Notes under the pieces: generated by a model
Databases searched by the model: none
What the model was told of the DNA's origin: nothing
The model's input: only the letters and a program-made list of their open reading frames with translations
Shown here: positions 36,496-62,577 of the stretch, piece after piece
How positions within the stretch are numbered: the first letter of the stretch is position 1
Layout: each line of letters opens with the position of its first letter
DNA from: Ignavibacteriota bacterium
Lineage (GTDB): Bacteria; Bacteroidota; Ignavibacteria; UBA10030; UBA6906
Length of the DNA stretch: 64,000 nt
Assembly: GCA_003158475.1 (NCBI GenBank)
Contig: PMJR01000078.1
Span: forward strand, 15,459-79,458
Reading direction: 5' to 3'
Position numbers and translations under genes: made by a program

Positions 36496-36507
36496 GGGTG
36501 TTCCCTC

Positions 36508-40839: not shown

Positions 40840-40996
40840 CGTGTGCTCACCTACCTCAAGGTTTATTCTGGAACGTCTTTAGCATCGATCCGCCCGACGA
40901 CAAGTCCCTCTTCACGCACATCGCCGAAAAAGAGGTAGCGGAAGCACAAGCGACCGTATCGTTCCGTCCTCATTGCCGAATCCCCCGAATTGCCGG

Positions 40997-42184: not shown

Positions 42185-42185
42185 G

Positions 42186-43232: not shown

Positions 43233-43245
43233 CGTCTTCCGATTG

Positions 43246-44277: not shown

Positions 44278-45597
44278 CTATGCTCCCGGGGGCAGGGCCG
44301 GTGACTCGATATTTGCGGGGGGTGGCATGCATTCCATCGCACGCGATCCCACGAACCACTCATGAGGGATGAGGGCCGCTCCATGTTTCCGTATGAGTGG
44401 CTCGGCCCCCGTGCCGAAGTAGTCGGCGGTGACGACCTGCATCTCCGCGGCGCGCGGCACAAAGTCGGACATCCCCCCGCGGTAGGCGAGCCACAGGTCG
44501 ATCCCGTACACTTCAGCGGCCAGCGAGAGACTCTCGACTTTGCACACCATGAGCCCGTCGCTCTCCACCTTTCCCCGCGGGACCGGAGAACTGAACCGTG
44601 TCGAGAGCGTGGAGATCGGGTGCCCCATGACATCGGTGAACCGCATGTCCAGGACGAAGTCAAGGGGCTCCAGCCCCTTGAGCTTGGTCGTGTACCCGAC
44701 GCTGAAATAGACCGGATCGCCCGTCCCCACGCTTGTGACTTTTCTCCCCTGTGCGTCGAAGCATGCAAACGACTTCAAACGGATGACGCCGTCTCCCCGC
44801 CTGTCCGTCCGCAGCTCGAGGTCCTCTTCGCTCGATTGATGCTCCTTGACGTACATGCCGATGGCGTCACTGGTGTCGCCGAGGTACGCCACACGGCCCC
44901 CCTCCAGGACCACGGTTCTTGAGGCGAGTCGGGAAATGGCCGTCATGTCATGACTGACGAACAACACCGTCCGCCCCTGCTGCGCCACTTCCCCCATCTT
45001 GCCAAGGCATTTTCTCTGAAAGGCGGCATCACCGACAGCCAGCACCTCATCGATGAGCAGCACATCGGGTTCGAGGTGGGCGGCGACCGCAAACGCCAGA
45101 CGCAGGTACATCCCCGACGAGTAGTGTTTCACGGGAGTGTCAATGAATTTCTCGACCTCAGAGAACGCCACGATATCGTCGAACCTGCGCCCGATGTCCT
45201 TCCTTCTCATGCCGAGGATCGCAGCGTTCAGATAGATATTCTCCCTCCCCGTGAGCTCGGCGTGAAAGCCGGTCCCGACCTCGAGCAGGGAGCTGAGCCT
45301 GCCGCGGATCTCCGCGTACCCGGTCGTCGGTTCGGTGATCCTGGAGAGCACCTTGAGCAGCGTGCTCTTGCCCGCCCCGTTGCGGCCGATGATCCCGATG
45401 ACTTCTCCCTGACCGACCTCGAATGAAACGTCCTGGAGCGCCCAGATCGTCCCCGACTTCCGGCCGGACTTTGAGCGGCGGAACATGGATTTCGCGGCGT
45501 CGGTCAGCTTGTCGCGAAACGTCTGATATCCGGCCTGCTTCTCCCCGATCCGGAATTGCTTGGAGAGACCCACGACCCTGACGGCCTGCTCAGTCAT
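44278..45597 (-). CDS. wzt: ABC-2 glycan exporter ATP-binding protein Wzt/TagH-type with a C-terminal extension (putative Wzt_C carbohydrate-binding domain) of about 190 aa
   Basis: Walker A GIIGRNGAGKSTLL, signature YSSGMYLRLAFA and Walker B LLIDEVLAVGD. A beta-rich extension follows (GDGVIRLKSFACFDAQGRKVTSVGTGDPVYFSVGY...). ATG at 45595-45597 (MTEQAVRVVGLSKQF). The track extension to 45843 overlaps wzm and is rejected. Confidence 0.9.
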   Translation of the reverse strand: MTEQAVRVVGLSKQFRIGEKQAGYQTFRDKLTDAAKSMFRRSKSGRKSGTIWALQDVSFEVGQGEVIGIIGRNGAGKSTLLKVLSRITEPTTGYAEIRGRLSSLLEVGTGFHAELTGRENIYLNAAILGMRRKDIGRRFDDIVAFSEVEKFIDTPVKHYSSGMYLRLAFAVAAHLEPDVLLIDEVLAVGDAAFQRKCLGKMGEVAQQGRTVLFVSHDMTAISRLASRTVVLEGGRVAYLGDTSDAIGMYVKEHQSSEEDLELRTDRRGDGVIRLKSFACFDAQGRKVTSVGTGDPVYFSVGYTTKLKGLEPLDFVLDMRFTDVMGHPISTLSTRFSSPVPRGKVESDGLMVCKVESLSLAAEVYGIDLWLAYRGGMSDFVPRAAEMQVVTADYFGTGAEPLIRKHGAALIPHEWFVGSRAMECMPPPANIESPALPPGA

Positions 45598-45656: not shown

Positions 45657-46514
45657 TTAGACAACATCGGCAAAATTCCTTTCCATCCTTTTGAAATAGT
45701 ATGCTCCGCTCACCATCATGATCACTGCGACGCCGGAGGAGGCCAGGATGATGGGTCCCGGCTGCGTGTGCGAGCCAAGCAGCGACCAGCGAAATCCTTC
45801 CACCACGCCGGCCATCGGGTTCAAACCATACAGCGTGCGCCACGGTTCAGGCAGCATGCTGCTCGGGTACGCGATGGGAGTGGCGTACATCCAGAACTGC
45901 GTCAGAAACGGGACGGCGAACCTTACGTCGCGGTATTCGACATTCAGCGCGGAAAGCCAGAAGCCGACGCCGAGAGAGGTCACCAGCGTCAGCAGGAAGA
46001 AGAAGGGAAGCCAGACCATGTTCATCGAGGGTGTCACCGCGTAGTACACCATCATGATCACCAGAATGGCCAGGGCGATCAGGAAGTCCACGATCCCCGC
46101 GAAGAGGCTTGCGATCGGTATGGTCAGGCGGGGGAAATAGACCTTCTTGATGAGATTCTGGCTCCCCACCAGGCTGTTCGATGACTGGGCCAGGCCGTAG
46201 ACGAAGAGGGTCCACGGGACGAGCCCGGTAAAACTGAATATCGGATACGGAATGCCGTCGGAGGGAATTTTTCCCAGGCGACCGAAGAATATGCTGAACA
46301 CGACCACAGTAAGCAACGGCTGTATGATCGCCCAGGTCGCTCCGAGGACGGTCTGCTTGTAGCGGATTTTGATATCCCGCCACGTCAGGAAATAGAGGAG
46401 TTCACGGTACTCCCAGAGCTCACCGAGCCGGAGGGACACCCATCCTTTTGAGGGTTCGATGCGCTGCACGCGGAGATCCTGAATGTCCGCGGATATCTGA
46501 GCCGAGTTCATCAT
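45657..46514 (-). CDS. wzm: ABC-2 type glycan exporter permease
   Basis: LWEYRELLYFLTWRDIKIRYKQTVLGATWAIIQPLL is the canonical Wzm/TagG N-terminal motif, followed by 6 TM helices. Confidence 0.9.
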   Translation of the reverse strand: MMNSAQISADIQDLRVQRIEPSKGWVSLRLGELWEYRELLYFLTWRDIKIRYKQTVLGATWAIIQPLLTVVVFSIFFGRLGKIPSDGIPYPIFSFTGLVPWTLFVYGLAQSSNSLVGSQNLIKKVYFPRLTIPIASLFAGIVDFLIALAILVIMMVYYAVTPSMNMVWLPFFFLLTLVTSLGVGFWLSALNVEYRDVRFAVPFLTQFWMYATPIAYPSSMLPEPWRTLYGLNPMAGVVEGFRWSLLGSHTQPGPIILASSGVAVIMMVSGAYYFKRMERNFADVV

Positions 46515-46533: not shown

Positions 46534-47274
46534 TCACCACGTTACCATTGCGCTGACCGGATCGATGCTGTCGAACATCGAAATTCGCCCGACCGGTCCG
46601 TCGGCCGCCAGCGCCCCCCTGTACCCCCGCGGGAGCGGGAGATCGAGGAGATGCCAGCGGCGCTCCTGCACCGACGGAGCCGAGGAAACATCGATGGCCC
46701 GCAGATCGAGTGAAATCCCTCCTCCAAGCGCCTTGACATAGGCCTCTTTTCTCGACCAGATCGAGTAGAACAAGTCTTCCATGACCGCGCCCGTACGCTC
46801 ATCAAGCATGCGCAGTTCGGCCGGACAGAAACATTTCCCGGCTATGGCCCGGACGTCCAGATCAGTCCTGATCCGTTCGATGTCCACCCCGACCTCCCGG
46901 CCGGCTGCAACGGCGACCAAGACGAGGTCACCGGAGTGCGACATATTGAACCGGATGGCCCCTGCCGAGTGCGGGCTTCTCAACGAGGGCTTGCCGGATC
47001 CCGGTGCATACATGAGACCGGCGGGGCGGGATCCCGTATACGACGCGAGGAGACGCCTCAATCCGCCGTGCGCCGACACGAAACGATCCTTATCGTCACG
47101 GGAGCGGAATGCGCGTCCCCGTGCCCGTTCGCCTGCGGAGAGCTCAGGCTCGTACTCCGCGAGAAGGGGGGCATCCACGAGCCCCGGCAATCGCCAGAGG
47201 TGCACTTCTCCCTCCCCGGGGAGCAGCGTTATCCCAACGGATGGGGAGGTCACAGGGCCCCCCTTCACTGTCAT
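46534..47274 (-). CDS. Sfp-type 4'-phosphopantetheinyl transferase
   Basis: DKDRFVSAHGGLRRLLASYTG, FNMSHSGDLVLVAVAAGREVGVDIERI and FYSIWSRKEAYVKALG (PPTase motifs 1-3). The track start at 47328 is a TTG inside the NRPS. ATG at 47272-47274 lies 4 nt after the NRPS stop, and ATG at 47295 is also possible. Confidence 0.85.
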   Translation of the reverse strand: MTVKGGPVTSPSVGITLLPGEGEVHLWRLPGLVDAPLLAEYEPELSAGERARGRAFRSRDDKDRFVSAHGGLRRLLASYTGSRPAGLMYAPGSGKPSLRSPHSAGAIRFNMSHSGDLVLVAVAAGREVGVDIERIRTDLDVRAIAGKCFCPAELRMLDERTGAVMEDLFYSIWSRKEAYVKALGGGISLDLRAIDVSSAPSVQERRWHLLDLPLPRGYRGALAADGPVGRISMFDSIDPVSAMVTW

Positions 47275-47278
47275 CTCT

Positions 47279-50200
47279 TCAGTCGGGATGCGCATGCCGT
47301 TCGAACGCGCGTTCAAGACATTCCGCAAGTTTTTGTGCGACGACAGAGACGTACGGCATCTGGAACATCGTCAGATGGTCCCCCGTGACGTCGTGTATTT
47401 CCACCCCTCCGAGGGCGAGTTTCCCCCATCCCTGTTCGCGATCGTGGAATTCGCCGACGGACCTTGTGCTCGCAGGGAAGAGCGTGATCCGCCCGGTGTA
47501 AGGCCGGGGGATATAGTTCCGTATCGCCACGATATTCAATTGTTCCACCTTCCGTAGCGCGGGGGGAAGCCGCAGCTTTTTGTTCGCGTACCTTTTGTAC
47601 TGCAGCCCCCAGACCTGCGTGCCGATCCTCCTCCTGAGCGTCCTGGACTTCCTGCGGATGTAGTCGAGCCGTCCAGGGTGGACCAGGAGATTCCGGACGT
47701 GATAGTGCATACGCTCCACCGAGCTTTCCCATTTGAACCGGGAAATTTCGCTCTTTGTCAATGTTCTGATGTGGCTGTGGGCGAATGTATCGAACATCGC
47801 CAGCATGCCGATCTTCTGGCCGGCCGCATGCAGCTGCTGCGCGATTTCATATGCCACGATGCCGCCCGTGCACGCGCCACCGAGGTAGTACGGTCCTTCG
47901 GGTTGGAACGCCCGTATCTCCCGAACGTAACGGGAAGCCATATCCTCCACGCGGTCCAGGGGGAATTCCTTGCCGTCCAACCCCACCGCCTGGAGACCGA
48001 ATACCGGTTGGTCGGGACCCAGCCGGGGAGCGAGCTCAGAGTACCCGATCACGTTTCCCCCTGCGGCGTGAACGCAGTAGAACGGGGGCCGGGATCCTCC
48101 GGGTTTGATCGCCACAAGAGACGACCATGATGAGGTCTTTTCTTCTCGGCGCAGAAGAGCCGATATGCCCTCGATCGTCGGTGCTTGAAAGAGAGTCGCC
48201 AGCGGGAGGTTCTTTCCGGTCAGTTTTTCAATCTGAGCGAAGAGCCTCGCCGCGAGCAGCGAGTGCCCCCCCAGCTCGAAGAAGTTATCGTGCACTCCGA
48301 TCGGCTTCTTTCCGAGGAGCGACTCCCAGAGATTCGCGAGCCGGATCTCGAGGGGATCCCGCGGGGCCACGTAACTACCGGCAGGTCGTCCGGGAGCCAC
48401 CGGGGGAGGAGGGAGGGCACCCCGGTCGATCTTGCCGTTCGGCATGATCGGTAACCGCTCCAGGAAGACGATGGCAGAAGGAAGCATATACCCCGGCAGT
48501 TTTTTCGCCCCATGTTCGACGAGATCTTCGACAGGAACTGATCCTCCCTTTGCACACACACAGTAGGCAACAAGCTGCTTCTCGCCGGACGGAGCGTCAC
48601 GGACCACCACGGCGACATCCTCCACTCCACGGTGCTCCCTGAGCACCGACTCGATTTCACCGGGCTCGACACGGTACCCCCGTATTTTCTCCTGCCTGTC
48701 CACCCGTCCCAGAAACTCGATGTTGCCGTCGGGACAGAAGCGAACGAGGTCTCCAGTCTTGTATAGTAAGGATCCTCCACGCGAATCGATGTGATTTCGG
48801 ACAAACCTCTCTGCCGTCAAACCGGGTTGGTTCAGGTACCCCTGTGCCAGCGTCGGCCCGCCGATGTGCAATTCTCCCGGGAACCCTGTCGGGGAAGGGG
48901 CGCCGTAGCGGTCAAGAACATACACGACGCGGTTGCGCAAAGGACGACCGATCGGGATTCTTGTCACGACCGCCAGCTTCTCATCGGGGAGTTCCCCGCA
49001 GTCATAGACCAGCGCGGTGACCGTTGTTTCTGTCGGGCCGTATGCGTTCAGGAGACGGACATGGCCAAACGAACTCCTCCTCCATCGCCTGAGCGCCTCC
49101 GGCATCATCGCCTCGCCGCCTATGATCATGAGCCTAAGAGAGTGATCCACCGGGGGATGATCGGAATCAGGAGGATCCATGGCAACCGCGTGCCAGTACC
49201 CTGTCGGAAGATTCACGACGGTCAGCCCCTGTGCAACGATCTGTTCCCACAGTTCCTTTGCACTCCAGAGTTCCTCACCACGGAGGACAAGGCGCGCGCC
49301 GCCGGTCAACGTCGTAAAGATCTGCTCGACGGAGGGATCGAAGCTCAGAGACGCGAATTGAAGGACCCTGTCACGGGGACCGATCCCGTACATCTCCCTG
49401 CACGCCGAGCAATGGCTCGCAATCGCCTGATGAGTAATGACCACCCCCTTCGGCTTTCCGGTCGAGCCGGAGGTGAACATTATGTAGGCCGGATGTGACC
49501 CCATGGACCTGTGTCGCGGATCAGTCCCGTCGCAGCGGTCGATTATCTCACGGTCGGTGTCACACAACACGCGCCGAACTCCGGAGCCATCCAGAATGTC
49601 GTCGAGCGGCGACTGGGTCACCACCAGTGGCATTCCCGTATCGGCAATCATCCCTCTCAGGCGTTCCCGCGGGTACCCCGGATCGAGGGGGACAAATGCT
49701 CCGCCGGCCTTGAGGATACCCAGCAGCGCGACGATCATTTCAACGGAGCGCTCCATGCACACCCCTACCGCCACCCCCGGTCCCACTCCAAGCGACATGA
49801 GATGGTGTGCCAGCCTGTTGGCTCTCAGATTCAGCTCACGATACACAAGTTGTTGTCCGCTCGAGGAAACCGCGACGGACTCCGGATGTTGCGCGGCCTG
49901 CTCTTCAAACCCCACGTCGATGCACTGATCGGGCCCGGTGCCTGGCGGGATGTTGTTCCACTCGACGAGCACCCTGTGCGATTCACCTGAAGTCATCAAC
50001 GGGAGTTCGGAGATCCGGCGGGAGGGATCCTTGACGATTCCTTCCAGCAGTACGTGAAATCGTTCGGCCATCCGACCAATTGCGGCCGGCTCAAAAAGGC
50101 CCGCATTATATTCGAATGACGCTCCCAGTCCCCCCGGCGAATCCGTCATCGTGAGCGTGAGATCGAATTTCGAGGTCCCATTGGAGATTTCAAGTCCCGC

Positions 50201-51454
50201 CACGGCGAGGCCGGGGAATTCAAGCGCGGACGTCGGCGCGTTCTGGAGCGCAAACATGACCTGTATGAGCGGGGATCGGCCAAGAACCCGTTCAGGATGG
50301 AATTCTTCAACAAGCCGCTCGAACGGGAGATCCTGGCTGGCAAACGCGCCGAGCGCGGTCTCCCGCACGCGCTGGAGGAGATCCAGGAACCGGGGGTCGC
50401 CGGAGAGGTCCGTGCGCAACACGAGAGTATTCACAAAGAACCCTATGACACTTTCCAGACCGGGACGGGCCCGGCCGGCCACAGGAGTCCCCAGGAGGAT
50501 ATCATCCTGACCTGTCATTCGATGCAGGAATACTCCAAAGGCAGCCGCCAACGTCATAAACAGGGTTACACCATTGCCGCGGCTCATTTGCCGCAGCTCT
50601 TCCGAGAGTGCCGCCGGGTATGCCACCCGCCAATCCCCGCCTCGACGGGGTTGTGCGTCACCCTGGAGGCGATCCCCCGGCAATTCCAGGACCCCTGCAT
50701 GTCCTGCCAGCCGGGACTTCCAGTAACCAAGCTGCCGCTCGAGCACCGTGTCGCTCAAATACCCGCGTTGCCAGACCGCGTAGTCTCCGTACTGGATCGG
50801 CGGCTCCGGAAGCGGCGACGGGAGCGACTGCACATACGCACCGTACAGCAATCGAAGTTCGTCGAGGAAAACCCCAACAGACCATCCGTCAAAGATGCTA
50901 TGATGGATGATTATGACGAGGATATGCTCATCCGGGTTCAGCCGGAGGAGATGGACCCTGAAGAGAGGCCCCCGCTCAAGGTCAAACGGCGTAGAGGCTT
51001 CACGGACGGTGAGTGCCATGGCACTCGCTTCCCGGTCAGGTTCGTCCGATCCCGGCATGTCCAGCGCCTGAAGCGCAAGAGGAACCAGCGGCGCGATGAT
51101 CTGCACCGGCCCATCATTCACTACTTCGAATGTGGTTCTAAGGACCTCATGGCGGCGCAGGATTTCGTTGAAGGAATGTTCCAGCGCAAGGATATCCAGC
51201 TTACCTATGCATCGGAAGGCCATGGGGATATTGTAACTGGCGCTCCCGGGGTCCAGGCGCTGGAGAAACCACAATCGTTGCTGAGCGAAGGAGAGGGGAA
51301 TCCGGTCATGGTGCAGCCGCCGCGGGATCTCCCGGTCCCCCGCAGGACCGGCAGCCCCCTCGGTCAGGATCCTGTCAAGGAGTGACTGTCTGGCCGGCGA
51401 TAGTTTTGAGCGGCGCGTTGCCGGGTCCTCGAATTCTTGCATCGATCCCTTCAT
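47279..51454 (-). CDS. NRPS module 3: C-A-T-TE, with GxCxG (Cys) thioesterase
   Basis: C: LSFAQQRLWFLQRLDPGS, HHSIFDGWS. A: YIMFTSGSTGKPKGV, NAYGPTE, YKTGDL, GRVDRQEKIRGYRVEPGEIE, NGKIDR. By-eye Stachelhaus code DPENIGAVTK. T: FFELGGHSLLA. TE: PFYCVHAAGGN, YYLGGACTGG (Cys codon TGC at 47870-47872), FDT and GDH. Start uncertain: ATG at 51454 or 51442 after the upstream stop, or ATG at 51517 with a 29-nt overlap. Confidence 0.93.
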   Translation of the reverse strand: MKGSMQEFEDPATRRSKLSPARQSLLDRILTEGAAGPAGDREIPRRLHHDRIPLSFAQQRLWFLQRLDPGSASYNIPMAFRCIGKLDILALEHSFNEILRRHEVLRTTFEVVNDGPVQIIAPLVPLALQALDMPGSDEPDREASAMALTVREASTPFDLERGPLFRVHLLRLNPDEHILVIIIHHSIFDGWSVGVFLDELRLLYGAYVQSLPSPLPEPPIQYGDYAVWQRGYLSDTVLERQLGYWKSRLAGHAGVLELPGDRLQGDAQPRRGGDWRVAYPAALSEELRQMSRGNGVTLFMTLAAAFGVFLHRMTGQDDILLGTPVAGRARPGLESVIGFFVNTLVLRTDLSGDPRFLDLLQRVRETALGAFASQDLPFERLVEEFHPERVLGRSPLIQVMFALQNAPTSALEFPGLAVAGLEISNGTSKFDLTLTMTDSPGGLGASFEYNAGLFEPAAIGRMAERFHVLLEGIVKDPSRRISELPLMTSGESHRVLVEWNNIPPGTGPDQCIDVGFEEQAAQHPESVAVSSSGQQLVYRELNLRANRLAHHLMSLGVGPGVAVGVCMERSVEMIVALLGILKAGGAFVPLDPGYPRERLRGMIADTGMPLVVTQSPLDDILDGSGVRRVLCDTDREIIDRCDGTDPRHRSMGSHPAYIMFTSGSTGKPKGVVITHQAIASHCSACREMYGIGPRDRVLQFASLSFDPSVEQIFTTLTGGARLVLRGEELWSAKELWEQIVAQGLTVVNLPTGYWHAVAMDPPDSDHPPVDHSLRLMIIGGEAMMPEALRRWRRSSFGHVRLLNAYGPTETTVTALVYDCGELPDEKLAVVTRIPIGRPLRNRVVYVLDRYGAPSPTGFPGELHIGGPTLAQGYLNQPGLTAERFVRNHIDSRGGSLLYKTGDLVRFCPDGNIEFLGRVDRQEKIRGYRVEPGEIESVLREHRGVEDVAVVVRDAPSGEKQLVAYCVCAKGGSVPVEDLVEHGAKKLPGYMLPSAIVFLERLPIMPNGKIDRGALPPPPVAPGRPAGSYVAPRDPLEIRLANLWESLLGKKPIGVHDNFFELGGHSLLAARLFAQIEKLTGKNLPLATLFQAPTIEGISALLRREEKTSSWSSLVAIKPGGSRPPFYCVHAAGGNVIGYSELAPRLGPDQPVFGLQAVGLDGKEFPLDRVEDMASRYVREIRAFQPEGPYYLGGACTGGIVAYEIAQQLHAAGQKIGMLAMFDTFAHSHIRTLTKSEISRFKWESSVERMHYHVRNLLVHPGRLDYIRRKSRTLRRRIGTQVWGLQYKRYANKKLRLPPALRKVEQLNIVAIRNYIPRPYTGRITLFPASTRSVGEFHDREQGWGKLALGGVEIHDVTGDHLTMFQMPYVSVVAQKLAECLERAFERHAHPD

Positions 51455-51488
51455 CAGTGACACTCGGCTTTCACCGCAGGCCTCACCA

Positions 51489-54400
51489 TCACTTTGTCCG
51501 CCCCGACACTTCATCATCGCTTAAATTCTCGATGTGATCGAGGAGCTTCTCCTCGATCGCCAGAGCCAGCGCACCGACCGTGGGGTATTCAAAAACACTC
51601 ACCAGCGAGAGATCAATCTGCCATCGGTCACGGATGCGCGAGACGACCTGCATTGCGAGAAGCGAATGTCCGCCCAGCGAGAAAAAATTGTCATTGATGC
51701 CCACACGCTCGACACCAAGGGTACGGGCGATGATTCCTGCCAGGGCCTTCTCGGTCGGCGACATCTCCTCCCCCGTCACATCCCCCCCGTCCACTGCCCC
51801 CCGTGGTGCCGGGACGGAAAGAAGCATGCGATCGACTTTGCCGTTGGAATTGCGGGGGAGCGCATCACAAAAGACGAATGCGGACGGGATCATGTATTCG
51901 GGCAGTTTCAGCTTCAGAAACTCCCGCAACGCGATGGCACGGTCGGCGGATCCCCCGTCCATGGCACAGTGTGCAACCAATCGTCTGTCGCCCGGCGCAA
52001 CCTCGGTGACGGTGACCACCGCCTCGCGAATGCCCGGATGCCCGGCGAGAACCGCCTCGATTTCCTCGAGCTCGACCCGGAAGCCCCGGATCTTTACCTG
52101 GTTGTCGACCCGGCCGATGAATTCGATGTTCCCGTCAGGGGAGAACCGGCCAAGATCGCCCGTCCTGTACAGGCGCTCCGGGAAGTCGGAACCGGCGGGA
52201 CCCGTCACGAAATTTCGCGCAGTCAGATCCGGACGGTTGAGATATCCTCGGGCGAGACCATCGCCTGCAACGAACAGCTCTCCGGGAATCCCGACAGGGA
52301 CAGGCTGCATAAACCTGTCCAGTATGTATACCCGGGTATTCCGGATGGGATGTCCGATCGGAACGGAGGTCGTAATCCGGGTCTTATCGGCGACGGTGTA
52401 ACAACAGGTGAACGTTGTATTCTCTGTCGGTCCGTAACCGTTGATCAACCTGCACCGGGGGTGCCGTTCCAGGAATTTCCTCACCTGCGGAACCGAGAGA
52501 ACTTCCCCGCCGGTGAGCAATTGCCGCACGCCCCCCAGGAGGTCCAGCGGTCCATCAACCATCTGGTGGAACAGGGAAGCCGTCAACCAGAGCGTCGTCA
52601 CACCCCTGTCCCTGATAACGCGGCCGAGCTCGTCGAGAGAGGGAAGGTGTCGGGGGAAAATGACGAGCCGGGCTCCGTTCAACAGGCTCCCCCAGAGCTC
52701 AAATGTGGACGCGTCGAACGAAATGGATGAAAACAGGAGGAAGACTTCGCCGGAGTTCAATGTCGCATAATCATTTGATCTGACCAGACGCACGACCCCG
52801 CGATGAGGGACGCACACGCCCTTCGGGACACCCGTCGAGCCGGAGGTATACATCACATATGCCAGCGCGTCCGGCGAACCCGCGGGGGGAAGGTCTTCAT
52901 CGCTTTCGCGCGCGATATCTTGCCATTCCGCGTCCAGCAAGATCACCTCCGCAGACCCGGGAGGAAGTTCATCCTTATGCGACCGGTGTGAGAGGATGAT
53001 GCTCACATGGGCATCATCGAGAATAAACGAGACCCGTTCGCGGGGGTACGAAATCTCCAGGGGAACGTATGTTCCTCCGGTCTTCAGAATGGCGAGCAGG
53101 CCGACGATCAAGTCGGCCGATCGGTCCAGGGCAACACCGACGCAGGATTCCGGCCCCACTCCCCGGGCACGAAGGAAACGCGCAAGCCTGTTCGCCCGCG
53201 AATTCAAGTCCCGGTACGTGACCTGATGGAGATCATCGTGCAGGGCAACCGCGTCGGGCGATTTCCGGGCCTGCTCCTCGAAGAGAGCGGAAATTGTCAT
53301 TCCCGAGGGATAGTCGGACTGCGTGGCGTTCCACGTGGTCGTCACCTTGCGCCTTTCCGCCTCGGTCATCATCGGGATCTGCCAGAGACGCCGGCCGGGA
53401 TCTGCCACAATCCCTTGGAGGAGAGCGATGAAATTCCCGGCCATGCGCCTGACGGTCTCCGGTTCGAACAGGTCCGCACTGCACTGGAGCCATCCCACCA
53501 ACTCACCACTTCGTTCCATCATTGAAAGCGTCACATCAAACTTCGCCGTATCTGTGCCGACGTCGAGCTTGTTCGCGAGGTTCCGCCCCAGCGTGATTCG
53601 CCCTTCAGGGGCGCTCTGCAGCACAAACATCACCTGAAAGAGGGGAGAATGCGTGAGACTTCGTTGCGGGTGGAGTTCCTCTACAATCCTCTCGAATGGG
53701 ACTTCCTGATGTTCGAGTGCCCCCAGACAGACTTCGCGCGTGCGTTTCAACAACTCCCGGAATGTCGGGTTTCCCTCCATGTTCGTCCGCAAAACGAGTG
53801 TGTTCACGAAAAACCCGGTCAGGCCCTCAATTTCCATGCGCGTGCGCCCGGCAATGGGTGTTCCGACGATCAGATCATCCTGACCGCTGCACCGGGAAAG
53901 CAGGACGTCGAATGCCGAAAGCAGGGTCATGAACAGTGTCACCCCCTCCTCCCTGCTGAGCTGCGTCAACCCGGCATAGAAAGAAACCGGGACGGTGAAA
54001 AATTCAGTCACCCCCGTTTGGGTCTGTACCGCAGGGCGCATCCTGTCCGCCGGCAGTTCCAGCACCGGCAGGGTCCCTCCCAGCTTTTTCCTCCAGTAGG
54101 CAAGTTGTTGTTCGAGGACCTCTCCCTGCAGCCATTCCCGCTGCCAGAGCACGTAATCCCCGTACTGGATGGGCAGATCCGGCAGCACGTGTTCCCCCCC
54201 GCGGGGAGTCGCTTCATAAAGGGCGGACAACTCCCCGAAGAATACGTTTTCGGACCACCCGTCGAAGACGATGTGGTGGAACACGAGCACCAGCAAATAT
54301 TCTTGCTTGCCCAACGTGATGAGTGCCACCCTCATCAACGGGCCCCGTTCCAGATCAAACCCCCTGTGCGCTTCCTCATGAACGAGGAGCATGGCCGCAG

Positions 54401-54812
54401 ACTCACGATCTCCTTCCGCCACAGAACGGAGGTCCCGGATGTCCACGCTCACGCCCGTTGCGGGGCCGACTTTCTGGAGAGGGTCTCCGTCCACGGAGGT
54501 GAACGTCGTCCGCAACACCTCGTGCCGGCGCACGATCTCCGTCAATGCGCTCTCCAGGGCTTCCACGGACACCTCCCCGTGCAACCTGTAGGCGTACGGG
54601 ACGTTGTAGGTTGACCTGCCGGGCGTCAAACGGTCCAGAATCCACAAACGCTGCTGTGCGAATGAAAGGGGGAAGGGGCCCTTCCTCTCGCGGCGGCCGA
54701 TGACGACGGAGTGCCCCGGCGCCCCTGCACCTGCAAGTCGCTTCGCCAGCAACTCCCGCTTCGACGCAGAGAGCGTCGACCGACGTCCTGTCACACCGTC
54801 CGGATCAGCCAT
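51489..54812 (-). CDS. NRPS module 2: C-A-T (predicted Val)
   Basis: C: LSFAQQRLWILDRLTPGR, HHIVFDGWS. A: YVMYTSGSTGVPKGV, NGYGPTE, YRTGDL, GRVDNQVKIRGFRVELEEIE, NGKVDR. By-eye Stachelhaus code DAFWLGGTFK, the canonical Val-type code. T: FFSLGGHSLLA. ATG at 54810-54812 overlaps the upstream stop by 8 nt. Confidence 0.93.
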   Translation of the reverse strand: MADPDGVTGRRSTLSASKRELLAKRLAGAGAPGHSVVIGRRERKGPFPLSFAQQRLWILDRLTPGRSTYNVPYAYRLHGEVSVEALESALTEIVRRHEVLRTTFTSVDGDPLQKVGPATGVSVDIRDLRSVAEGDRESAAMLLVHEEAHRGFDLERGPLMRVALITLGKQEYLLVLVFHHIVFDGWSENVFFGELSALYEATPRGGEHVLPDLPIQYGDYVLWQREWLQGEVLEQQLAYWRKKLGGTLPVLELPADRMRPAVQTQTGVTEFFTVPVSFYAGLTQLSREEGVTLFMTLLSAFDVLLSRCSGQDDLIVGTPIAGRTRMEIEGLTGFFVNTLVLRTNMEGNPTFRELLKRTREVCLGALEHQEVPFERIVEELHPQRSLTHSPLFQVMFVLQSAPEGRITLGRNLANKLDVGTDTAKFDVTLSMMERSGELVGWLQCSADLFEPETVRRMAGNFIALLQGIVADPGRRLWQIPMMTEAERRKVTTTWNATQSDYPSGMTISALFEEQARKSPDAVALHDDLHQVTYRDLNSRANRLARFLRARGVGPESCVGVALDRSADLIVGLLAILKTGGTYVPLEISYPRERVSFILDDAHVSIILSHRSHKDELPPGSAEVILLDAEWQDIARESDEDLPPAGSPDALAYVMYTSGSTGVPKGVCVPHRGVVRLVRSNDYATLNSGEVFLLFSSISFDASTFELWGSLLNGARLVIFPRHLPSLDELGRVIRDRGVTTLWLTASLFHQMVDGPLDLLGGVRQLLTGGEVLSVPQVRKFLERHPRCRLINGYGPTENTTFTCCYTVADKTRITTSVPIGHPIRNTRVYILDRFMQPVPVGIPGELFVAGDGLARGYLNRPDLTARNFVTGPAGSDFPERLYRTGDLGRFSPDGNIEFIGRVDNQVKIRGFRVELEEIEAVLAGHPGIREAVVTVTEVAPGDRRLVAHCAMDGGSADRAIALREFLKLKLPEYMIPSAFVFCDALPRNSNGKVDRMLLSVPAPRGAVDGGDVTGEEMSPTEKALAGIIARTLGVERVGINDNFFSLGGHSLLAMQVVSRIRDRWQIDLSLVSVFEYPTVGALALAIEEKLLDHIENLSDDEVSGRTK

Positions 54813-57800
54813 GGGGTTTTTCCCCGGCAGTAAAAAGATGTGCATTTCGTTCACGGACCGTCTCCTCATCCGACAGTCTCTCGACTTCTTCCAGCAACCT
54901 CCGCTCGATGGTGGAAGCCATGGCAGAAAGCGACGGCGCGTCGAACACGTCCGGAAATCGCAGATCAATGCTCCACCGGGCATGGATGCGCGACACAAGC
55001 TGCATCACGAGCAGGGAATGGCCGCCGATGTCGAAGAAATTGTCGGCGGCTTTTATCCCCTTCACGCCGAGCAACTCCTCCCAGAGTTGGCTCAGGGACT
55101 CCTCGATCGGCGTCAAAGGCGTCTCCAGGACCTCCTGTTCATGGATCAAATGACTGCCATGCGCGGAAAGGGCGTGCCGGTCCACCTTCCCTCTTGAATT
55201 CAACGGCATGAAGTCGACCCGGGCAAAAACCGCCGGCACCATGTACTCAGGAAGCAGCCTTCTGGCGTGAGCTCGCAGCTCGTCTCCCGCAAGGGGTGAT
55301 TCACCTCCGGGGACGAAATACGCCTCCAGCCGCTGCTCACCATTGGGTCCTCTTCGCACGATCACCGCGGTTTCACGCACCCCGTCATGCTCGAGCAACA
55401 CTGATTCTATTTCGCCGAGTTCGATCCGGTACCCGCGGATTTTCACCTGGTCATCGGTGCGACCGAGGAACTCCAGGGTCCCGTCCGGAAGATACCTGGC
55501 AAAGTCCCCGGACCGGTACAGCCGGGATGCAGGATCACCGGAGAATGGATCCCGCACAAACCGTTCCGCCGTAAGTTCAGGACGATTCAGATACCCGCGG
55601 GCCACACCGGCCCCCCCGATACAGAGCTCGCCTGGAACGCCGACGGGCAGAGGCCGCATTTCGCGATCGAGCACGTAAAGACGCGTATTCGCGATCGGCC
55701 TCCCTATGGGGATCGAGCCTGCAGGCGGGATACCTGCTGGAACCCGGTAGACGGAGCAGCCGACAACGGTTTCCGTCGGACCGTATTCATTAAAAAGAGC
55801 TGCTGCGGGAGCTATCTTTTGCCAACGGACGGCGAGGTCCGCCTTCAGATTCTCCCCCCCTATGACAAATGTCACCTTCAGAGCCGCGCCCGCTCCCGGA
55901 GGAATGAGCGCTGCGAGCAGCTCCAGATGAGCGGGGGTGATTTTTACAAGGCTGCAATCAGCGTGCGCCAGGAGCACTGCGGAGAGATCCTCGGGTCGTG
56001 ACGATTCCGGCAGAAGATGAACGGTGCGACCACACAGAAGAGGCGAATACAATCCAGTGACGGTCAGATCAAAGGCCAGAGGACTGTGCACGAGCGAGCC
56101 CCCCCCCCGGCGCACATCGTACGCCTCCGTGCACCAGAGAAGGTAATTCGACAGTCCACGATGCAGAACAACGGTCCCTTTAGGCCTCCCTGTCGATCCC
56201 GACGTGTAAATGACGTAGGCGGCATTCTCGGGCCCCGCACGGCCCGGCATGTTTGCCGCCTTCATTGCGTCACCAGCGTGATCCGCCCCAGGCATTTCCT
56301 CCGGAAATACGAGGGGTACCCCCTGCCTGCTGAAGAGACCGGCCAGATTCCTCGAAGCAATGACGAACGACGGACGGGCATCATCCTGAATGAATCGCCG
56401 ACGATCTTCAGGGAGCGCCGGGTCAAGGGGGAGGTATGCGCCTCCGGCTTTGAGAATTGCAAGGAGACACATCACCATTTCGCACGACCTCTCCAGGGCG
56501 ATCCCCACTACAACTTCCGGCCCAACCCCGAGCGCCGAAAGATGGCGAGCGAACAGGTTTGCGCGATGGTTCAGCTCCCCGTAAGTCCACTGGTCTTTCC
56601 CGCAGGAGACCGCCACGGCTTCCGGGGACAGGTCTGCCTGAACTTCGATGAGCTCGTGAACACACGGAGGCGGGCTGCCGGCGACGTCTGTGGCGTTCCA
56701 TTCCCACAGGATCTGCCGTTCTTCTTTCTCCGTAAGCAGAGGGATTTCGCCCACGCGTTGATCGTGGCGTGCCGCCATGGAGGTCAAGAGAGTCTGCAGG
56801 TGCCCCAGCATCCGTTCGACAGTCGGGGGAGTGAAACGGGCCCTGGAGTAGGTCAATCGCAACACACCTTCCTCACCGTGGATCTCGAACACCAGCGGAA
56901 AGTGTGTCTGGGAAAGCACGGAGAACTCGCGTTCGCCCCGGGCGGCCCTCCGGGATCGCATCTGCGCCTTCAGGCCCAGGTGATCATAGACAAGGAGCGT
57001 CTCAAAGAGAGCCCTGCCTCCGGCCACCCGGCTCCATCCCCGAATCCGTCCGAGCGGTGTTTGCTCGTGCTGGCGGACAGCCGAATGGTCCCGTCGCAAT
57101 TGTCGTAGCAACTCCATCAGCGGCGTCTCCGGCGGGACGCGGACCCTGAGCGGGACGGTATTGATGCAGCAGCCGAGGATCCTCTCCGCACCGTTCACCG
57201 TCGACCTGCGACAGGCCCTCGTCTCCCCGAAGACGACGTCCGTGACTCCGCTGTAGCGACTCAGCAGCAGCCCCCAGGCCGCGTGGAACACGGTGCTCAA
57301 TGGTACCTGTGATGCAGCGACCAGCTCGCGGAGCCCTGAGAGCACCGGGGGGGGAAGCTGCAGAGCGCATCTGCCGACGGCAAGGCCCTCCCCCCCCGGG
57401 GACCCGGGCTCCGGAGGAAGCGGTGTCGGGTCCGTGAACCCCCGGAGATAGTCCGTCCAGAACGATTCAGAGCGGTCGTGATTCCTTTCACGTGCCCAAT
57501 CGATGTATGCGCGGAACGGGACCCGCTCTTCCACCACCGGTACCGTCCCGGCGCACAGGCATTCATATGTCAGGAAGAGTTCTTCGAGCAGGAGCGGAAA
57601 TGCATGGCCATCGAGGAGCATGTGGTGCAGCGTCACGACCAGGAATGACTGATCAGCGTCCATTATGAACGCCGCCAACCGGACGAGGGGAGGGCTGCCG
57701 GGGTCGAATCCCCTCCTGCGGTCTTCTTCCAGGTGGACGTCGAGGAGTTCCCTCCCCTCCCCCGAAGACATCATGCTCCAGTCACTGATGAGGATGGCGG

Positions 57801-58050
57801 CATCGACCGAGCGGTGCACATGCTGCAGCGGCGCTCCGTCACCGCCCCAGCGAAAGGAAGTCCTGAGGACCGGGTTCCGATCGACAACCGATCGCCATGC
57901 CTTCTCCAGCAGAGCCGGCTCGATATGCTCATGGAGCAGACAGACGATCTGGACGATATTCACCCCGCTCCCGGGGGCAAACTCGTGATTGAAGAGCATC
58001 CCCTCCTGCATGGGCGAAAGCGGGTATGCGTCGATGATCTCCCGTGTCAT
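54805..58050 (-). CDS. NRPS module 1: N-terminal (starter-position) C domain-A-T (predicted Asn)
   Basis: C: DAYPLSPMQEGMLFNHEF, HHMLLDGHAF. A: YVIYTSGSTGRPKGT, NEYGPTE, YRSGDF, GRTDDQVKIRGYRIELGEIE, RGKVDR. By-eye Stachelhaus code DLTKVGEVGK, an Asn-type code. T: FFDIGGHSLLV. I prefer ATG at 58048-58050 (MTREIIDAYPL). The track start at 58185 would read through the strong hairpin at 58096-58128 and overlap the dehydrogenase gene. Confidence 0.93.
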   Translation of the reverse strand: MTREIIDAYPLSPMQEGMLFNHEFAPGSGVNIVQIVCLLHEHIEPALLEKAWRSVVDRNPVLRTSFRWGGDGAPLQHVHRSVDAAILISDWSMMSSGEGRELLDVHLEEDRRRGFDPGSPPLVRLAAFIMDADQSFLVVTLHHMLLDGHAFPLLLEELFLTYECLCAGTVPVVEERVPFRAYIDWARERNHDRSESFWTDYLRGFTDPTPLPPEPGSPGGEGLAVGRCALQLPPPVLSGLRELVAASQVPLSTVFHAAWGLLLSRYSGVTDVVFGETRACRRSTVNGAERILGCCINTVPLRVRVPPETPLMELLRQLRRDHSAVRQHEQTPLGRIRGWSRVAGGRALFETLLVYDHLGLKAQMRSRRAARGEREFSVLSQTHFPLVFEIHGEEGVLRLTYSRARFTPPTVERMLGHLQTLLTSMAARHDQRVGEIPLLTEKEERQILWEWNATDVAGSPPPCVHELIEVQADLSPEAVAVSCGKDQWTYGELNHRANLFARHLSALGVGPEVVVGIALERSCEMVMCLLAILKAGGAYLPLDPALPEDRRRFIQDDARPSFVIASRNLAGLFSRQGVPLVFPEEMPGADHAGDAMKAANMPGRAGPENAAYVIYTSGSTGRPKGTVVLHRGLSNYLLWCTEAYDVRRGGGSLVHSPLAFDLTVTGLYSPLLCGRTVHLLPESSRPEDLSAVLLAHADCSLVKITPAHLELLAALIPPGAGAALKVTFVIGGENLKADLAVRWQKIAPAAALFNEYGPTETVVGCSVYRVPAGIPPAGSIPIGRPIANTRLYVLDREMRPLPVGVPGELCIGGAGVARGYLNRPELTAERFVRDPFSGDPASRLYRSGDFARYLPDGTLEFLGRTDDQVKIRGYRIELGEIESVLLEHDGVRETAVIVRRGPNGEQRLEAYFVPGGESPLAGDELRAHARRLLPEYMVPAVFARVDFMPLNSRGKVDRHALSAHGSHLIHEQEVLETPLTPIEESLSQLWEELLGVKGIKAADNFFDIGGHSLLVMQLVSRIHARWSIDLRFPDVFDAPSLSAMASTIERRLLEEVERLSDEETVRERNAHLFTAGEKPHG

Positions 58051-58095
58051 ATCTTTGCCGAGCTTCCCCCCGGAGGGGGGTGTGAGAACAAAATC

Positions 58096-58128
58096 GGGCA
58101 GGACATTTGCATGAACAATGTCCTGCCC
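58096..58128 (-). terminator. Strong hairpin (11-bp perfect stem, 11-nt loop) followed by a U-rich run; putative intrinsic terminator or attenuator between the dehydrogenase gene and the NRPS operon
   Basis: GGGCAGGACAT (58096-58106) pairs with ATGTCCTGCCC (58118-58128). On the minus strand the hairpin is followed by GATTTTGTTCTC. It lies 17 nt after the stop at 58145 and 46 nt before the NRPS1 ATG. Confidence 0.45.
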
Positions 58129-58144: not shown

Positions 58145-59446
58145 TTACGCCCTGAAGATGATCCCGTCCCTGTCCGGTGCGACATGCCGTGTGTCGACGA
58201 CCGGGGTTTTGAACACCGTGAGATCCATCTTCCTGTACTCGTCGTGCGCCGTGGCTACGAGGATGAGGTCGTACCCCGCGGCAACCGGCACCGATTTTCT
58301 CCCTGCATATTTTGCGAACTCGCGGGAAGGTCTGATCACCGGAATGTACGGATCATTATAGCTGACGGTTGCCCCCTTCTCCTCGAGCTTTTCCATCAGA
58401 TGGTAGGACGGCGATTCCCTGTCATCGTCCACATTCGCCTTGTACGCGAGACCGAGCATCAGGATCTTCGCGCCCTTCAGCGCCCGTCCGAACTCGTTGA
58501 GCACCTCCATCACCCGCTGGACCACGAATTCGGGCATCCCAGAGTTGATCTCTCCCGCGAGCTCGATGAACTTCGTCGGCGCGCCGTATTCGCGCGCCTT
58601 CCAGGTGAGATAGAACGGGTCGATCGGAATACAGTGCCCGCCAAGGCCCGGGCCGGGATAGAACGGCATGTAGCCGAACGGCTTCGTCTTCGCCGCTTCG
58701 ATGACCTCCCAGATATCGATCCCCATGCGCATGAATGTCATCTTCAGCTCGTTCACGAGCGCGATGTTTACCGCGCGGAACGTGTTCTCCACAAGCTTTG
58801 CCGCTTCCGCTGCTTGCGTCGAGGAGACCGGGACGGTCCGGACCACGATCTGCTGGTAGATCTTCTCGGCGACCGCCAGCCCCTCCGGCGTGGTCGAGCC
58901 GACCACCTTGGGAATGGTCTCCGTCGTGTAATCGGTACGGCTCGGATCCTCCCGCTCGGGCGAAAACGCAACGTAGAAGTCCCTGTCCACCTTCAGTCCG
59001 TTCCGCTCGAGAATCGGGATCATGACTTCCACGGTCGTCCCCGGATACGTCGTCGACTCGAGAACGATCATCTGATCCCTGCGCACATGGGGAGCAATGC
59101 TCTCGCACGTGGAAACAATGTACGACATGTCGGGTTCGCGGTTCTTGTTGAGCGGCGTAGGCACCGCGATCAGAAGCACATCGCATTCCTTTGCCTTTGC
59201 AAAGTCGGTCGTGGTCGTCAGTAAACCGGAGGACGCCGCCCCGGCGACCCGTGTCGCCGGTATGTGTTTGATGTAGGACTGGCCCCTGGCGAGGGCTTCA
59301 GTTTTCTTGCCGTCGATATCGAGCCCGATGACATGGAACCCCTTCTCAACGAAGCAGAGGAGCAACGGCAACCCGACATAGCCGAGGCCGACGACGCCGA
59401 CCACGGACTGTTTTTTATCGATCTTGGAGAGGAGTGTGGAATTCAT
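58145..59446 (-). CDS. Nucleotide-sugar dehydrogenase (UDP-N-acetyl-hexosamine dehydrogenase clade: WbpO/TviB/WecC-like)
   Basis: VVGLGYVGLPLLLCFVEKGFHVIGLDID, ESTTYPGTT, FSPEREDP and the catalytic-Cys context GGHCIPIDPFYL. Confidence 0.9.
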   Translation of the reverse strand: MNSTLLSKIDKKQSVVGVVGLGYVGLPLLLCFVEKGFHVIGLDIDGKKTEALARGQSYIKHIPATRVAGAASSGLLTTTTDFAKAKECDVLLIAVPTPLNKNREPDMSYIVSTCESIAPHVRRDQMIVLESTTYPGTTVEVMIPILERNGLKVDRDFYVAFSPEREDPSRTDYTTETIPKVVGSTTPEGLAVAEKIYQQIVVRTVPVSSTQAAEAAKLVENTFRAVNIALVNELKMTFMRMGIDIWEVIEAAKTKPFGYMPFYPGPGLGGHCIPIDPFYLTWKAREYGAPTKFIELAGEINSGMPEFVVQRVMEVLNEFGRALKGAKILMLGLAYKANVDDDRESPSYHLMEKLEEKGATVSYNDPYIPVIRPSREFAKYAGRKSVPVAAGYDLILVATAHDEYRKMDLTVFKTPVVDTRHVAPDRDGIIFRA

Positions 59447-62519: not shown

Positions 62520-62577
62520 CTTTCCCGATAGTTTGTCATCACACATCGTACATGCAGGATCGGCGTCACTCCACCGG

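Follow-up and report, generated by a model that had tools for sequence, protein, structure and literature searches.

Why would a bacterium keep a nonribosomal peptide synthetase (NRPS) in the middle of a locus that builds and exports a surface glycan, and where does its peptide go? The question is raised by 64,000 nucleotides of DNA from an Ignavibacteriota bacterium (GenBank assembly GCA_003158475.1, contig PMJR01000078.1, positions 15,459 to 79,458), here called the window, in which positions 46534-58050 hold a complete and apparently active three-module NRPS with its own Sfp/HetI-type phosphopantetheinyl transferase (PPTase). An earlier reading of the letters (the original prediction) proposed that the peptide is attached to, primes or caps a glycan. 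We find that the NRPS has a stable place in the glycan locus, so that this part of the proposal stands, and that the proposed covalent attachment is inferred from gene context only. The destination that we consider most likely is a surface glycoconjugate, in a tentative reading that falls a little short of even. The hybrid locus of NRPS and glycan genes is a conserved and testable arrangement in an uncultured, Ignavibacteria-like clade of Bacteroidota, and the functional links between its two parts are contextual.

Organization of the NRPS Genes

Three NRPS genes follow each other on the minus strand, the first two with the domain order condensation (C), adenylation (A) and thiolation (T), and the third with C-A-T and a thioesterase (TE). 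NRPS1 (54805..58050; 1081 amino acids) has an N-terminal C domain of the DCL type (HHMLLDG), an A domain with the Asn code DLTKVGEVGK and a T domain; NRPS2 (51489..54812; 1107 amino acids) has a C domain of the LCL type, an A domain with the Val code DAFWLGGTFK and a T domain; and NRPS3 (47279..51454; 1391 amino acids) has an LCL-type C domain, an A domain with the code DPENIGAVTK, a T domain and the TE. In the corresponding open reading frames (ORFs), 54805-58185, 51489-54998 and 47279-51517, Pfam recognizes Condensation, AMP-binding, AMP-binding_C and PP-binding, and in the last of them also Thioesterase.

The start codon of NRPS1 is the ATG at 58050, and its C domain begins at residue 7, as judged from the junction sequence and Pfam. 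NRPS2 starts with the ATG at 54812, in an 8-nt overlap with the NRPS1 stop (ATGGCTGA), and NRPS3 with the ATG at 51454, 34 nt past the NRPS2 stop; other in-frame starts lie at 51442, 51463 and 51517. The PPTase gene starts with the ATG at 47274, 4 nt past the NRPS3 stop, the permease gene wzm with the ATG at 46514, 19 nt past the PPTase stop, and the ATPase gene wzt with the ATG at 45597, just preceded by GGGAGGAG. Pfam and the minus-strand junction sequences thus reproduce exactly the coordinates, the three domain orders and the spacings of 8, 4 and 19 nt in the original prediction. All these genes belong to one co-directional array on the minus strand, which runs from the end of the window to about 18080.

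The catalytic motifs are intact in the three C domains (HHMLLDG, HHIVFDG and HHSIFDG in C1, C2 and C3, respectively); the A domains carry SGxTGxPKG together with intact A3, A8 and A10 motifs, and GGHS is present in all three T domains. By Pfam and motif check the proteins have the collinear C, A, T and TE domains, with catalytic motifs, of a modular type I NRPS. Pfam detects neither epimerization (E) domains nor terminal reductase (R) domains in the three proteins. The GC content, 0.60-0.62 overall and 0.60-0.61 in the NRPS region, is like that of the flanks, and a compositional island was rejected for this reason.

Accessory functions are few. In a six-frame motif scan of the window the three T domains were the only carrier-protein motifs, and an MbtH motif was absent; among window ORFs of at least 200 amino acids there is no Pfam match to a polyketide synthase (PKS), oxidase, fatty acyl-AMP ligase (FAAL), MMPL protein or peptide-type exporter; and the window has no tailoring enzyme, regulator or peptide exporter for the NRPS. 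The lack of PKS, MbtH, tailoring oxidase and peptide exporter had been correctly anticipated.

The PPTase (46534..47274, minus strand, 246 amino acids) contains the Pfam domain ACPS in ORF 46534-47328 (PF01648, E = 8e-17) and the motif WSRKEAYVKA, which is of the type WxxKEAYxKA and conforms to the Sfp-type W/FxxKE(A/S)xxK; in its orthologues an AASDHPPT_N domain is found as well. Its size, ACPS domain, motif and adjoining carrier-protein clients are those of an Sfp-type (group II) PPTase. The best NCBIfam model is HetI, with 126 bits against an equivalog cut-off of 370, and membership is therefore assigned at the family level only. Within the window it has no other carrier domains to act on than the three T domains of the NRPS, which agrees with the proposal of a dedicated PPTase.

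Conservation of the Locus

A search with NRPS1 of a set of 5.8 billion proteins gave orthologues that are only metagenomic, in eight loci (L079-L086). The full upstream head is seen in L080-L084, L079 is seen from the dehydrogenase on, and L085 and L086 show the part with NRPS, PPTase and wzm. The order is constant: a giant protein with a type IX secretion system (T9SS) sorting domain, a Wza-like SLBB protein, the co-polymerase Wzc, a nucleotide-sugar dehydrogenase, a gap of 76-97 nt, NRPS1 to NRPS3, and the PPTase. The NRPS identity to the window goes from 83% down to 43%, while the dehydrogenase stays at 83-87% in all orthologous loci. In 8/8 recovered loci the NRPS and PPTase genes occupy the same place, co-oriented and tightly spaced, so that they are embedded in the glycan locus, as had been claimed, and are not its chance neighbours. 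Orthologues away from glycan genes, or a close homologue with a known free product, would have told against the original prediction; the recovered orthologues include none of the former, and none of the latter was found. In the orthologous loci no exporter, regulator, MbtH, FAAL or acyl carrier protein (ACP) accompanies the NRPS cluster.

The substrate codes divide the loci into three specificity types. In the window and in L079-L081 the codes are Asn, Val and DPENIGAVTK; in L086 they are DTEDLGGIVK, Val and DAETAGLVAK, and L085, whose NRPS1 lies outside the contig, has the same A2 and A3 codes; in L082-L084 they are Asn-like, Val and DAERVGLVAK. The Val code is thus invariant across the orthologues and the Asn-type code nearly so. 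The part of the assembly line that is best conserved across divergent types is T3-TE, with 60-79% identity compared with 41-58% for C and A domains; over all orthologues its identity is 60-93%.

What follows the PPTase is variable, and in every locus the next gene overlaps it or lies within 0-40 nt. In the window and in L085 it is followed by wzm, wzt, a GT2 gene and neuB-neuC (the L086 contig stops just past wzm), in L079 by wzm and an epimerase gene, in L081 by wzm and a 1607-residue A-KR-T-TE protein (19490-20332), in L082 by a further C-A-T-TE protein of 1372 residues (21514-23243), and in L083 and L084 by a KpsF-like SIS/CBS gene and a MATE/Wzx-like gene. The idea that wzm and wzt are constant partners of the NRPS therefore has to be given up, since in L082-L084 their place is taken by NRPS or by KpsF-like and MATE/Wzx-like genes. 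From the A-KR-T-TE and C-A-T-TE proteins it also follows that the variable region includes more carrier-dependent enzymes.

A sliding comparison places a recombination breakpoint at the T3|TE boundary, at NRPS3 residues ~1081-1111 (window ~48110-48210, minus strand). Before the breakpoint, NRPS3 is mostly 77-90% identical to L079 and 40-67% identical to L085; the TE is 48-77% identical to L079 and 67-90% to L085. The corresponding numbers are 46% and 63% for the PPTase and 76% and 90% for Wzm, and Wzt, which lies outside the L079 contig, is 88% identical to L085. From this follows that the TE has been co-inherited with PPTase, wzm and wzt, i.e., that the release domain travels with the downstream glycan cassette. 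The breakpoint is a single event, which fits functional coupling and fits physical linkage alone just as well.

When NRPS3 was compared with one genome per GTDB species, the matches were generic NRPSs of many phyla with 37-48% identity and no orthologue, and none of the 78 genome loci matched by NRPS3 had wzm, wzt or dehydrogenase synteny. A scan of metagenome contigs with a PPTase alignment gave, among the matches listed, generic Sfp-type PPTases (32-41% identity) and no orthologues; many of the listed matches adjoin the TE ends of NRPSs, a commonplace arrangement. Searches of open-access papers met with no account of a three-module NRPS built into a polysaccharide operon of Bacteroidota, which is weak evidence of novelty.

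The Predicted Peptide

Stachelhaus codes were read from an alignment to a GrsA-PheA fragment, with FDxS and YGPTE as anchors. The A1 code DLTKVGEVGK is the classical Asn code and the A2 code DAFWLGGTFK is a Val code, which is also listed in a review of lipopeptides (PMC9113097). In open-access papers the Val code alone was found, and the four unassigned or variant codes had no literature match. The A3 code DPENIGAVTK is without residue assignment and the third residue is written X, so that the codes bear out the predicted peptide Asn-Val-X. To judge by the glutamate at A3 position 239, residue 3 may have a side chain that is cationic or bears an amine, and the code as a whole resembles the Orn code DMENLGLINK.

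Since there are no E domains, an all-L peptide is expected, and the LCL type of C2 and C3, whose best solved relatives in a ranking of PDB entries are LCL-type domains (Txo1/2, TycC6), agrees with this. The same ranking for C1 gives McyB C1 (282 bits), the first C domain of PvdL (234 bits), TycB1 (171 bits) and SrfA-C (149 bits), with the characterized starter domains far below (RzmA-Cs 54 bits, CDA-C1 32 bits). McyB C1, TycB1 and SrfA-C take D-configured donors, and the first C domain of PvdL takes a fatty acyl donor. As judged by its sequence, C1 is a DCL-clade domain at the extreme N-terminus, with no upstream partner in the window. It has the position of a starter C (Cs) domain, at the N-terminus both in the window and in L079-L083, and in the PDB ranking it does not group with characterized members of that class. 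The window offers no acyl donor supply in the form of a FAAL (ORFs of at least 200 amino acids) or an additional carrier motif (six frames), and if the C1 donor is an acyl group it must come from primary metabolism. From the DCL type of C1 and its intact HHxxxDG it follows that the N-terminus of the peptide probably receives a cap from a donor provided in trans. The motif HHxLLDG is kept in all orthologues, though C1 identity is 41-47% in the divergent ones, and the idea of a vestigial C1 was rejected for this reason.

The TE spans about 47282-48112 and has a cysteine as nucleophile (codon 47870-47872, minus strand; motif GGACTGG), together with an intact His motif (GDH). The cysteine is invariant in 7 orthologues. 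Relatives were taken from a library of 1.8 billion proteins, and in the nearest 150 of them (50% cluster representatives) the nucleophile is Cys in 34 and Ser in 114; exchange between Ser and Cys is thus common in this subfamily. Among structurally characterized NRPS TEs, a Cys nucleophile is found only in ObiF, SulM and AB3403 (PMC11298585). By the criteria of that paper, the ObiF/SulM class is marked by a Gln-Cys-Asn motif, a relocated triad Asp, and genes for Dap supply and for a sulfotransferase. The NRPS3 TE shares the cysteine with this class and is not a member of it, for it has Ala-Cys-Thr where SulM and ObiF have Gln-Cys-Asn, and neither a sulfotransferase gene nor SulG/H-like genes are seen in the window (Pfam, ORFs of at least 200 amino acids). 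With this signature absent and with the cysteine in 34 of 150 relatives, we rejected the residue as a mark of special chemistry, be it β-lactone or β-lactam formation or aminolysis. The C-A-T-TE protein AB3403 of Acinetobacter baumannii (PDB 4ZXH) is among the two best PDB matches to the TE, with a modest phmmer E value of 1e-23; it likewise uses Cys, with the triad Asp at the usual position in AB3403 (PMC11298585), but it is a single-module protein from a different cluster, with a structurally undefined product.

The Glycan Genes Upstream and Downstream

The head of the locus starts with the C-terminal part, about 470 amino acids, of a giant Ig-repeat surface protein (62578..64000, minus strand) with FlgD_ig and a T9SS type A sorting domain (TIGR04183, 25.9 bits against a cut-off of 23). 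Its frame is open past the window end, with no stop up to 63999, and it is 48-56% identical to the C-termini of the products at the same position in L080, L082 and L084, which have recorded lengths of 2,547-2,922 amino acids; for the relatives as a group the recorded range is 2,447-2,922 amino acids. The host had been described as an FCB-type bacterium with T9SS, and this is supported by the TIGR04183 match and by RF1 (4404-5495), which is 97% identical to a protein from a metagenome-assembled genome (MAG) labelled 'Bacteroidota bacterium' and 82% identical to one labelled 'Ignavibacteriae bacterium'. The names of the samples and MAG series from which the matching contigs come point to a habitat that is probably of soil type.

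Next come, on the same strand, a short Wza-like export protein of 185 amino acids (61989..62546; Pfam SLBB and SLBB_2), found at the same position in L080-L084, and Wzc, a co-polymerase with a tyrosine autokinase domain (59514..61949; Wzz, GNVR, AAA_31; TIGR01007 149.7 bits against a cut-off of 108), which is 64-72% identical in the orthologous loci. The dehydrogenase (58145..59446, minus strand; Pfam UDPG_MGDP) scores 428.9 bits with TIGR03026 (cut-off 189.8), followed by the models for UDP-ManNAc dehydrogenase and TviB, and the best PDB matches are 4r16 and Cap5O. The UDP-sugar dehydrogenase and Wzc of the original prediction are therefore present, with the refinement that a match to UDP-glucose dehydrogenase is weaker than that to the UDP-N-acetylhexosamine (ManNAc/GlcNAc) type of nucleotide-sugar 6-dehydrogenase.

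The gap of 94 nt between the dehydrogenase gene and NRPS1 contains a terminator-like hairpin (58087..58128, minus strand) with a perfect stem of 11 bp, GGGCAGGACAU...AUGUCCUGCCC, followed by GAUUUUGUU. The predicted fold has 14-15 pairs, with a folding z value of -4.3. A hairpin with a U-rich tail is found at the equivalent place in L079-L083 (L079:1653-1736, L080:9918-10000, L081:7059-7134, L082:9917-10000, L083:9904-10000), in three unrelated sequence versions and with z values from -4.2 to -5.4 in 4/5 of these loci. Such conservation of structure marks it as probably an intrinsic terminator or attenuator. A simple terminator scan, which missed this bulged hairpin, gave counts at the level of shuffled sequence, and Rfam gave no family match in the whole window. 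Between the hairpin and NRPS1 no promoter was found, either in a sigma-70 scan, at shuffle level, or by eye as TAnnTTTG. A C6-UCC-G6 mini-hairpin lies directly before the NRPS1 start (58062-58076, minus strand), with a similar element at about 9965-9985 in L083; as judged from its position it might occlude the translation start of NRPS1.

Downstream of the PPTase lie Wzm, an ABC-2 permease (45657..46514, minus strand; ABC2_membrane, PF01061; best NCBIfam models Wzm/RfbD and KpsM), and Wzt, an ABC ATPase of 439 amino acids (44278..45597, minus strand; ABC_tran, PF00005, and Wzt_C, PF14524, in the Pfam ORF 44278-45843), whose start was set by the sequence and by the 439-residue L085 orthologue, 88% identical. 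Wzt_C, a C-terminal carbohydrate-binding domain, scores 31.8 bits against a cut-off of 30.4, and the best NCBIfam models for the pair are Wzm/RfbD, KpsM, TagH and Wzt. An ABC-2 permease and an ATPase are what ABC-transporter-dependent glycan export requires, with Wzt_C as an optional part, and the adjacent exporter is of the glycan type, as predicted. Wzm is a generic glycan permease: in a search with thousands of relatives it is 70-78% identical to many permeases in MAGs of Verrucomicrobiae and Pyrinomonadaceae (Acidobacteria). In three loci from other phyla (L087, L170, L171) wzm comes after Wzc and there is no NRPS, and in the first two of these wzm precedes neuB-neuC-neuA. A role of Wzm/Wzt as dedicated peptide exporter was rejected on account of this identity to permeases in NRPS-free glycan loci, and since the same Wzc...wzm architecture, which is widespread and commonly includes neuB-neuC-neuA, exists without NRPS in other phyla, the NRPS and PPTase look like a lineage-specific addition between the dehydrogenase gene and the body of the locus. 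The wzm-neu cassette itself is shared across phyla, probably through lateral spread.

The next genes (40141..44232, minus strand) encode a GT2-like protein and a nonulosonic-acid cassette with a NeuB-like synthase, a NeuC hydrolysing 2-epimerase, which scores above its equivalog cut-off, and a CMP-transferase. The GT2/neu order is the same in L085, and the neu cassette adjoins wzm in the Verrucomicrobiae and Pyrinomonadaceae loci too. The remainder of the array (18080..40144, minus strand) encodes many GT4 and GT2 glycosyltransferases, DegT aminotransferases, three CE4 deacetylases, a Wzy_C protein, a PaaK/CapK-like ligase, an epimerase, an initiating sugar transferase and a PglF-like dehydratase. 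Between NRPS1 and about 18080, neighbouring genes either overlap or leave gaps of no more than about 60 nt; one gap of 157 nt is the exception. From this near lack of intergenic gaps it follows that the NRPS genes lead an array of about 40 kb and are probably co-transcribed with its glycan genes, while at their upstream side the hairpin looks like a regulated or leaky stop that parts them from the genes of the head.

Fate of the Peptide

Consider first how a peptide from this assembly line could become part of a surface glycoconjugate. The N-terminal C domain would cap Asn with an acyl group or another thioester donor supplied in trans, and residue 3 would carry an amine or cationic side chain. 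The TE would then transfer the capped Asn-Val-X to a lipid-linked glycan intermediate in the cytoplasm, where candidates for the attacking nucleophile are a hydroxyl and a free sugar amine made by the CE4 deacetylases or the DegT aminotransferases. Otherwise the TE would release a lipopeptide that is itself glycosylated. In both cases the peptide would be exported within a surface glycoconjugate. Since glycans that depend on ABC transporters are finished at the cytoplasmic side of the membrane, a cytoplasmic TE could reach them.

In favour of this scheme are the operon-like embedding of the NRPS in several downstream contexts, the lack of exporter, regulator and tailoring genes of its own, a diversification like that of serotypes, a release domain that is conserved and moves together with the glycan cassette, and a Wzt with a C-terminal glycan-recognition domain. 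There is also a precedent in Bacteroidota, where amino-acid-bearing uronic sugars link T9SS cargo to lipopolysaccharide (PMC7468200).

Several observations weigh against it. The links between peptide and glycan are all contextual, and NRPS and PPTase by themselves are a self-sufficient minimal cluster. A C domain of DCL type or in starter position, combined with a TE, is the usual layout for a free lipopeptide. The Cys nucleophile of the TE, as its frequency among the closest relatives says, is not special; wzm and wzt are not always next to the PPTase; and the Wzm family, by sequence, works without an NRPS in other phyla. A conserved terminator-like hairpin parts the dehydrogenase gene from NRPS1, with no promoter recognized. 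Finally, the orthologous loci come from one fairly narrow clade (RF1 93-97%, dehydrogenase 83-87%), and the conserved gene order may therefore reflect inheritance rather than selection.

The alternative that survives best, though we consider it rather unlikely, is a free (lipo)tripeptide made by an ordinary small cluster that merely has its place inside the polysaccharide operon and is perhaps expressed together with it. The TE would release N-acyl-Asn-Val-X by hydrolysis, or as a side-chain lactam if X is Orn- or Lys-like, and the compound might serve as surfactant, as signal or as matrix component in aid of biofilm formation or surface colonization. Three C-A-T modules, a TE and a PPTase are all that such a cluster needs, lines of the C-A-T...TE kind make a free product by default, and the intact motif of the N-terminal C domain fits the logic of lipopeptides. 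Among homologues outside the syntenic loci, the closest belong to multi-protein NRPS lines of the ordinary kind (L169, and the 78 genome loci without glycan synteny), and thousands of ordinary NRPSs carry a TE closely related to this one. The hairpin can be taken to mark the start of a separate unit, and the generic nature of Wzm and the phylogenetic narrowness of the syntenic loci point the same way. Against a free product speak the lack of exporter, regulator, MbtH, FAAL and ACP in any of the loci, a PPTase gene that in several downstream contexts is translationally close to, or overlaps, glycan genes, and a place in a long co-directional glycan array that has been kept in spite of NRPS divergence to 45%.

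The original prediction had named the mycobacterial glycopeptidolipid (GPL) locus (mps1/mps2, gtf1-3, rml, mmpL4a/b, gap) as the closest analogy, and in a corresponding scheme the acylated tripeptide would be the aglycone for glycosyltransferases of the locus, giving a glycolipopeptide of the outer membrane. Both loci cluster an NRPS for a short peptide with glycosyltransferase and deoxyhexose genes (here GT2, GT4 and rmlB- and rmlC-like genes, in the same window as an N-terminal C domain), and an envelope destination is likely in both. The analogy fails on the defining features. Here there are three modules without E domains, a TE in place of the reductase and, as judged by Pfam and motif scan of the window, neither MbtH, a FAAL/PKS loader nor an MmpL/Gap-type exporter; Asn-Val-X lacks the hydroxyl of Thr or alaninol at the positions that are glycosylated in GPLs; and the host is a member of Bacteroidota with polymer-type glycan genes, Wzc, Wzy_C, Wzx and Wzm/Wzt, which are hallmarks of pathways for undecaprenyl-carried polymers. 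A GPL-like product is accordingly improbable.

A system from the same phylum is the Wbp/Vim pathway of Porphyromonas gingivalis and Tannerella forsythia, in which WbpA/B/E/D, VimE (CE4) and VimA make 2-N-seryl or 2-N-glycyl uronic linking sugars, so that an N-acetylated uronic sugar with an aminoacyl substituent is linked to T9SS cargo (PMC7468200). The window has a WbpA-like HexNAc dehydrogenase gene, DegT and CE4 genes; GFO/IDH/MocA, hexapeptide and VimA-like genes were not found in it. VimA adds one Ser or Gly and not an NRPS tripeptide, and the present locus is known from its genes alone. Least probable of all, and hardly to be expected, is that the capped peptide sits on an N-acetylhexosaminuronic linking sugar where its amine, e.g., in the side chain of residue 3, would be the sortase acceptor for the giant adhesin, an assembly-line-made and strain-variable peptide replacing the single Ser or Gly: a cargo gene shares the locus with HexNAc dehydrogenase, DegT and CE4 genes and heads the orthologous loci, and the acidic residue at A3 position 239 hints at an amine-bearing residue, but WbpB (GFO/IDH/MocA), WbpD (hexapeptide) and VimA homologues are missing from the window, the conserved C1 probably blocks the peptide N-terminus, and the adjacency of the cargo gene may be coincidence.

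In its workings the locus comes closest to a cross between a small lipopeptide NRPS of the ordinary kind and a Wzc/ABC-transporter glycan locus of the standard type. The Dlt system for D-alanylation of teichoic acid (DltA, DltC, DltB, DltD) is similar in that adenylation and a phosphopantetheinyl carrier serve to decorate a surface glycopolymer; it differs in that it transfers a single amino acid, has neither C nor TE domains and acts outside the membrane via an MBOAT protein, and no DltB- or DltD-like genes are seen in the window. The O9a-type ABC export and the K1 neu capsule of Escherichia coli are similar in Wzm, in Wzt with Wzt_C and in an adjoining NeuB/NeuC/CMP-transferase cassette; they are without NRPS or PPTase, and a WbdD-like terminator is not seen here.

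If the peptide does join the exported glycan, the reach of thiotemplate chemistry would widen beyond secondary metabolism to the biogenesis of Gram-negative surface polymers, and this would be the first nonribosomal peptide shown to belong, as an integral and exported component, to the surface polysaccharide of a Gram-negative bacterium. The precedents known to us are the D-alanylation of teichoic acids and the GPLs of mycobacteria. The peptide would in that case add a new, strain-variable layer of surface antigens, with NRPS types that differ between close relatives in the manner of serotype genes, and it might connect to the tethering of T9SS cargo. Should a free lipotripeptide be the product, the locus would represent a new NRPS family, a modest find, in an uncultured clade of Bacteroidota. 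Either way, it is a defined unit of 11.5 kb that is open to heterologous expression.

Further Features of the Window and of Related Loci

Carrier-protein chemistry also occurs in a glycan locus without NRPS: in L087, from Verrucomicrobiae, an Sfp-type PPTase, a 454-residue protein with a weak PP-binding match and a MaoC dehydratase lie beside wzm-neuBCA (6430-7167 and 17713-19544). In a different, Wzx-type glycan locus (L168:10001-21442), two cadherin/Big_9 proteins separate an isolated C-A-T protein, which shares 44% identity with NRPS1, from a PKS with the order KS-AT-T-TE. In yet another, unrelated glycan locus (L171:1187-5833), three small 23S_rRNA_IVP (four-helix-bundle) genes stand among Wzc and epimerase genes.

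Within the array of the window, the PaaK/CapK-like adenylating enzyme (24829-26148, minus strand), with a weak NCBIfam match and no Pfam match at E <= 0.001, lies between CE4 deacetylase and glycosyltransferase genes. A relaxed Pfam search gave nothing informative for the cassette proteins at 39086-40144 and 37668-39086. At the lower end of the array there are a receiver-only response regulator (17661-18020, minus strand) and an RmlC-like epimerase (16955-17428, minus strand).

The window has the components of Wza/Wzc (Wzx/Wzy-dependent) export, i.e., the SLBB protein and Wzc of the head, the Wzy_C protein (31985-33394), a Polysacc_synt protein (6579-8177) and a Poly_export/SLBB protein (2494-4185). 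The last of these belongs to a second export pair, in which a Wzz/GNVR protein without kinase (1145-2425) accompanies the Poly_export and SLBB-containing Wza, and which in the region 1145-10493 is interleaved with prfA, a DUF1385 gene, the Wzx flippase gene, nadC and accA. From this second pair follows that the window holds more than one glycan system.

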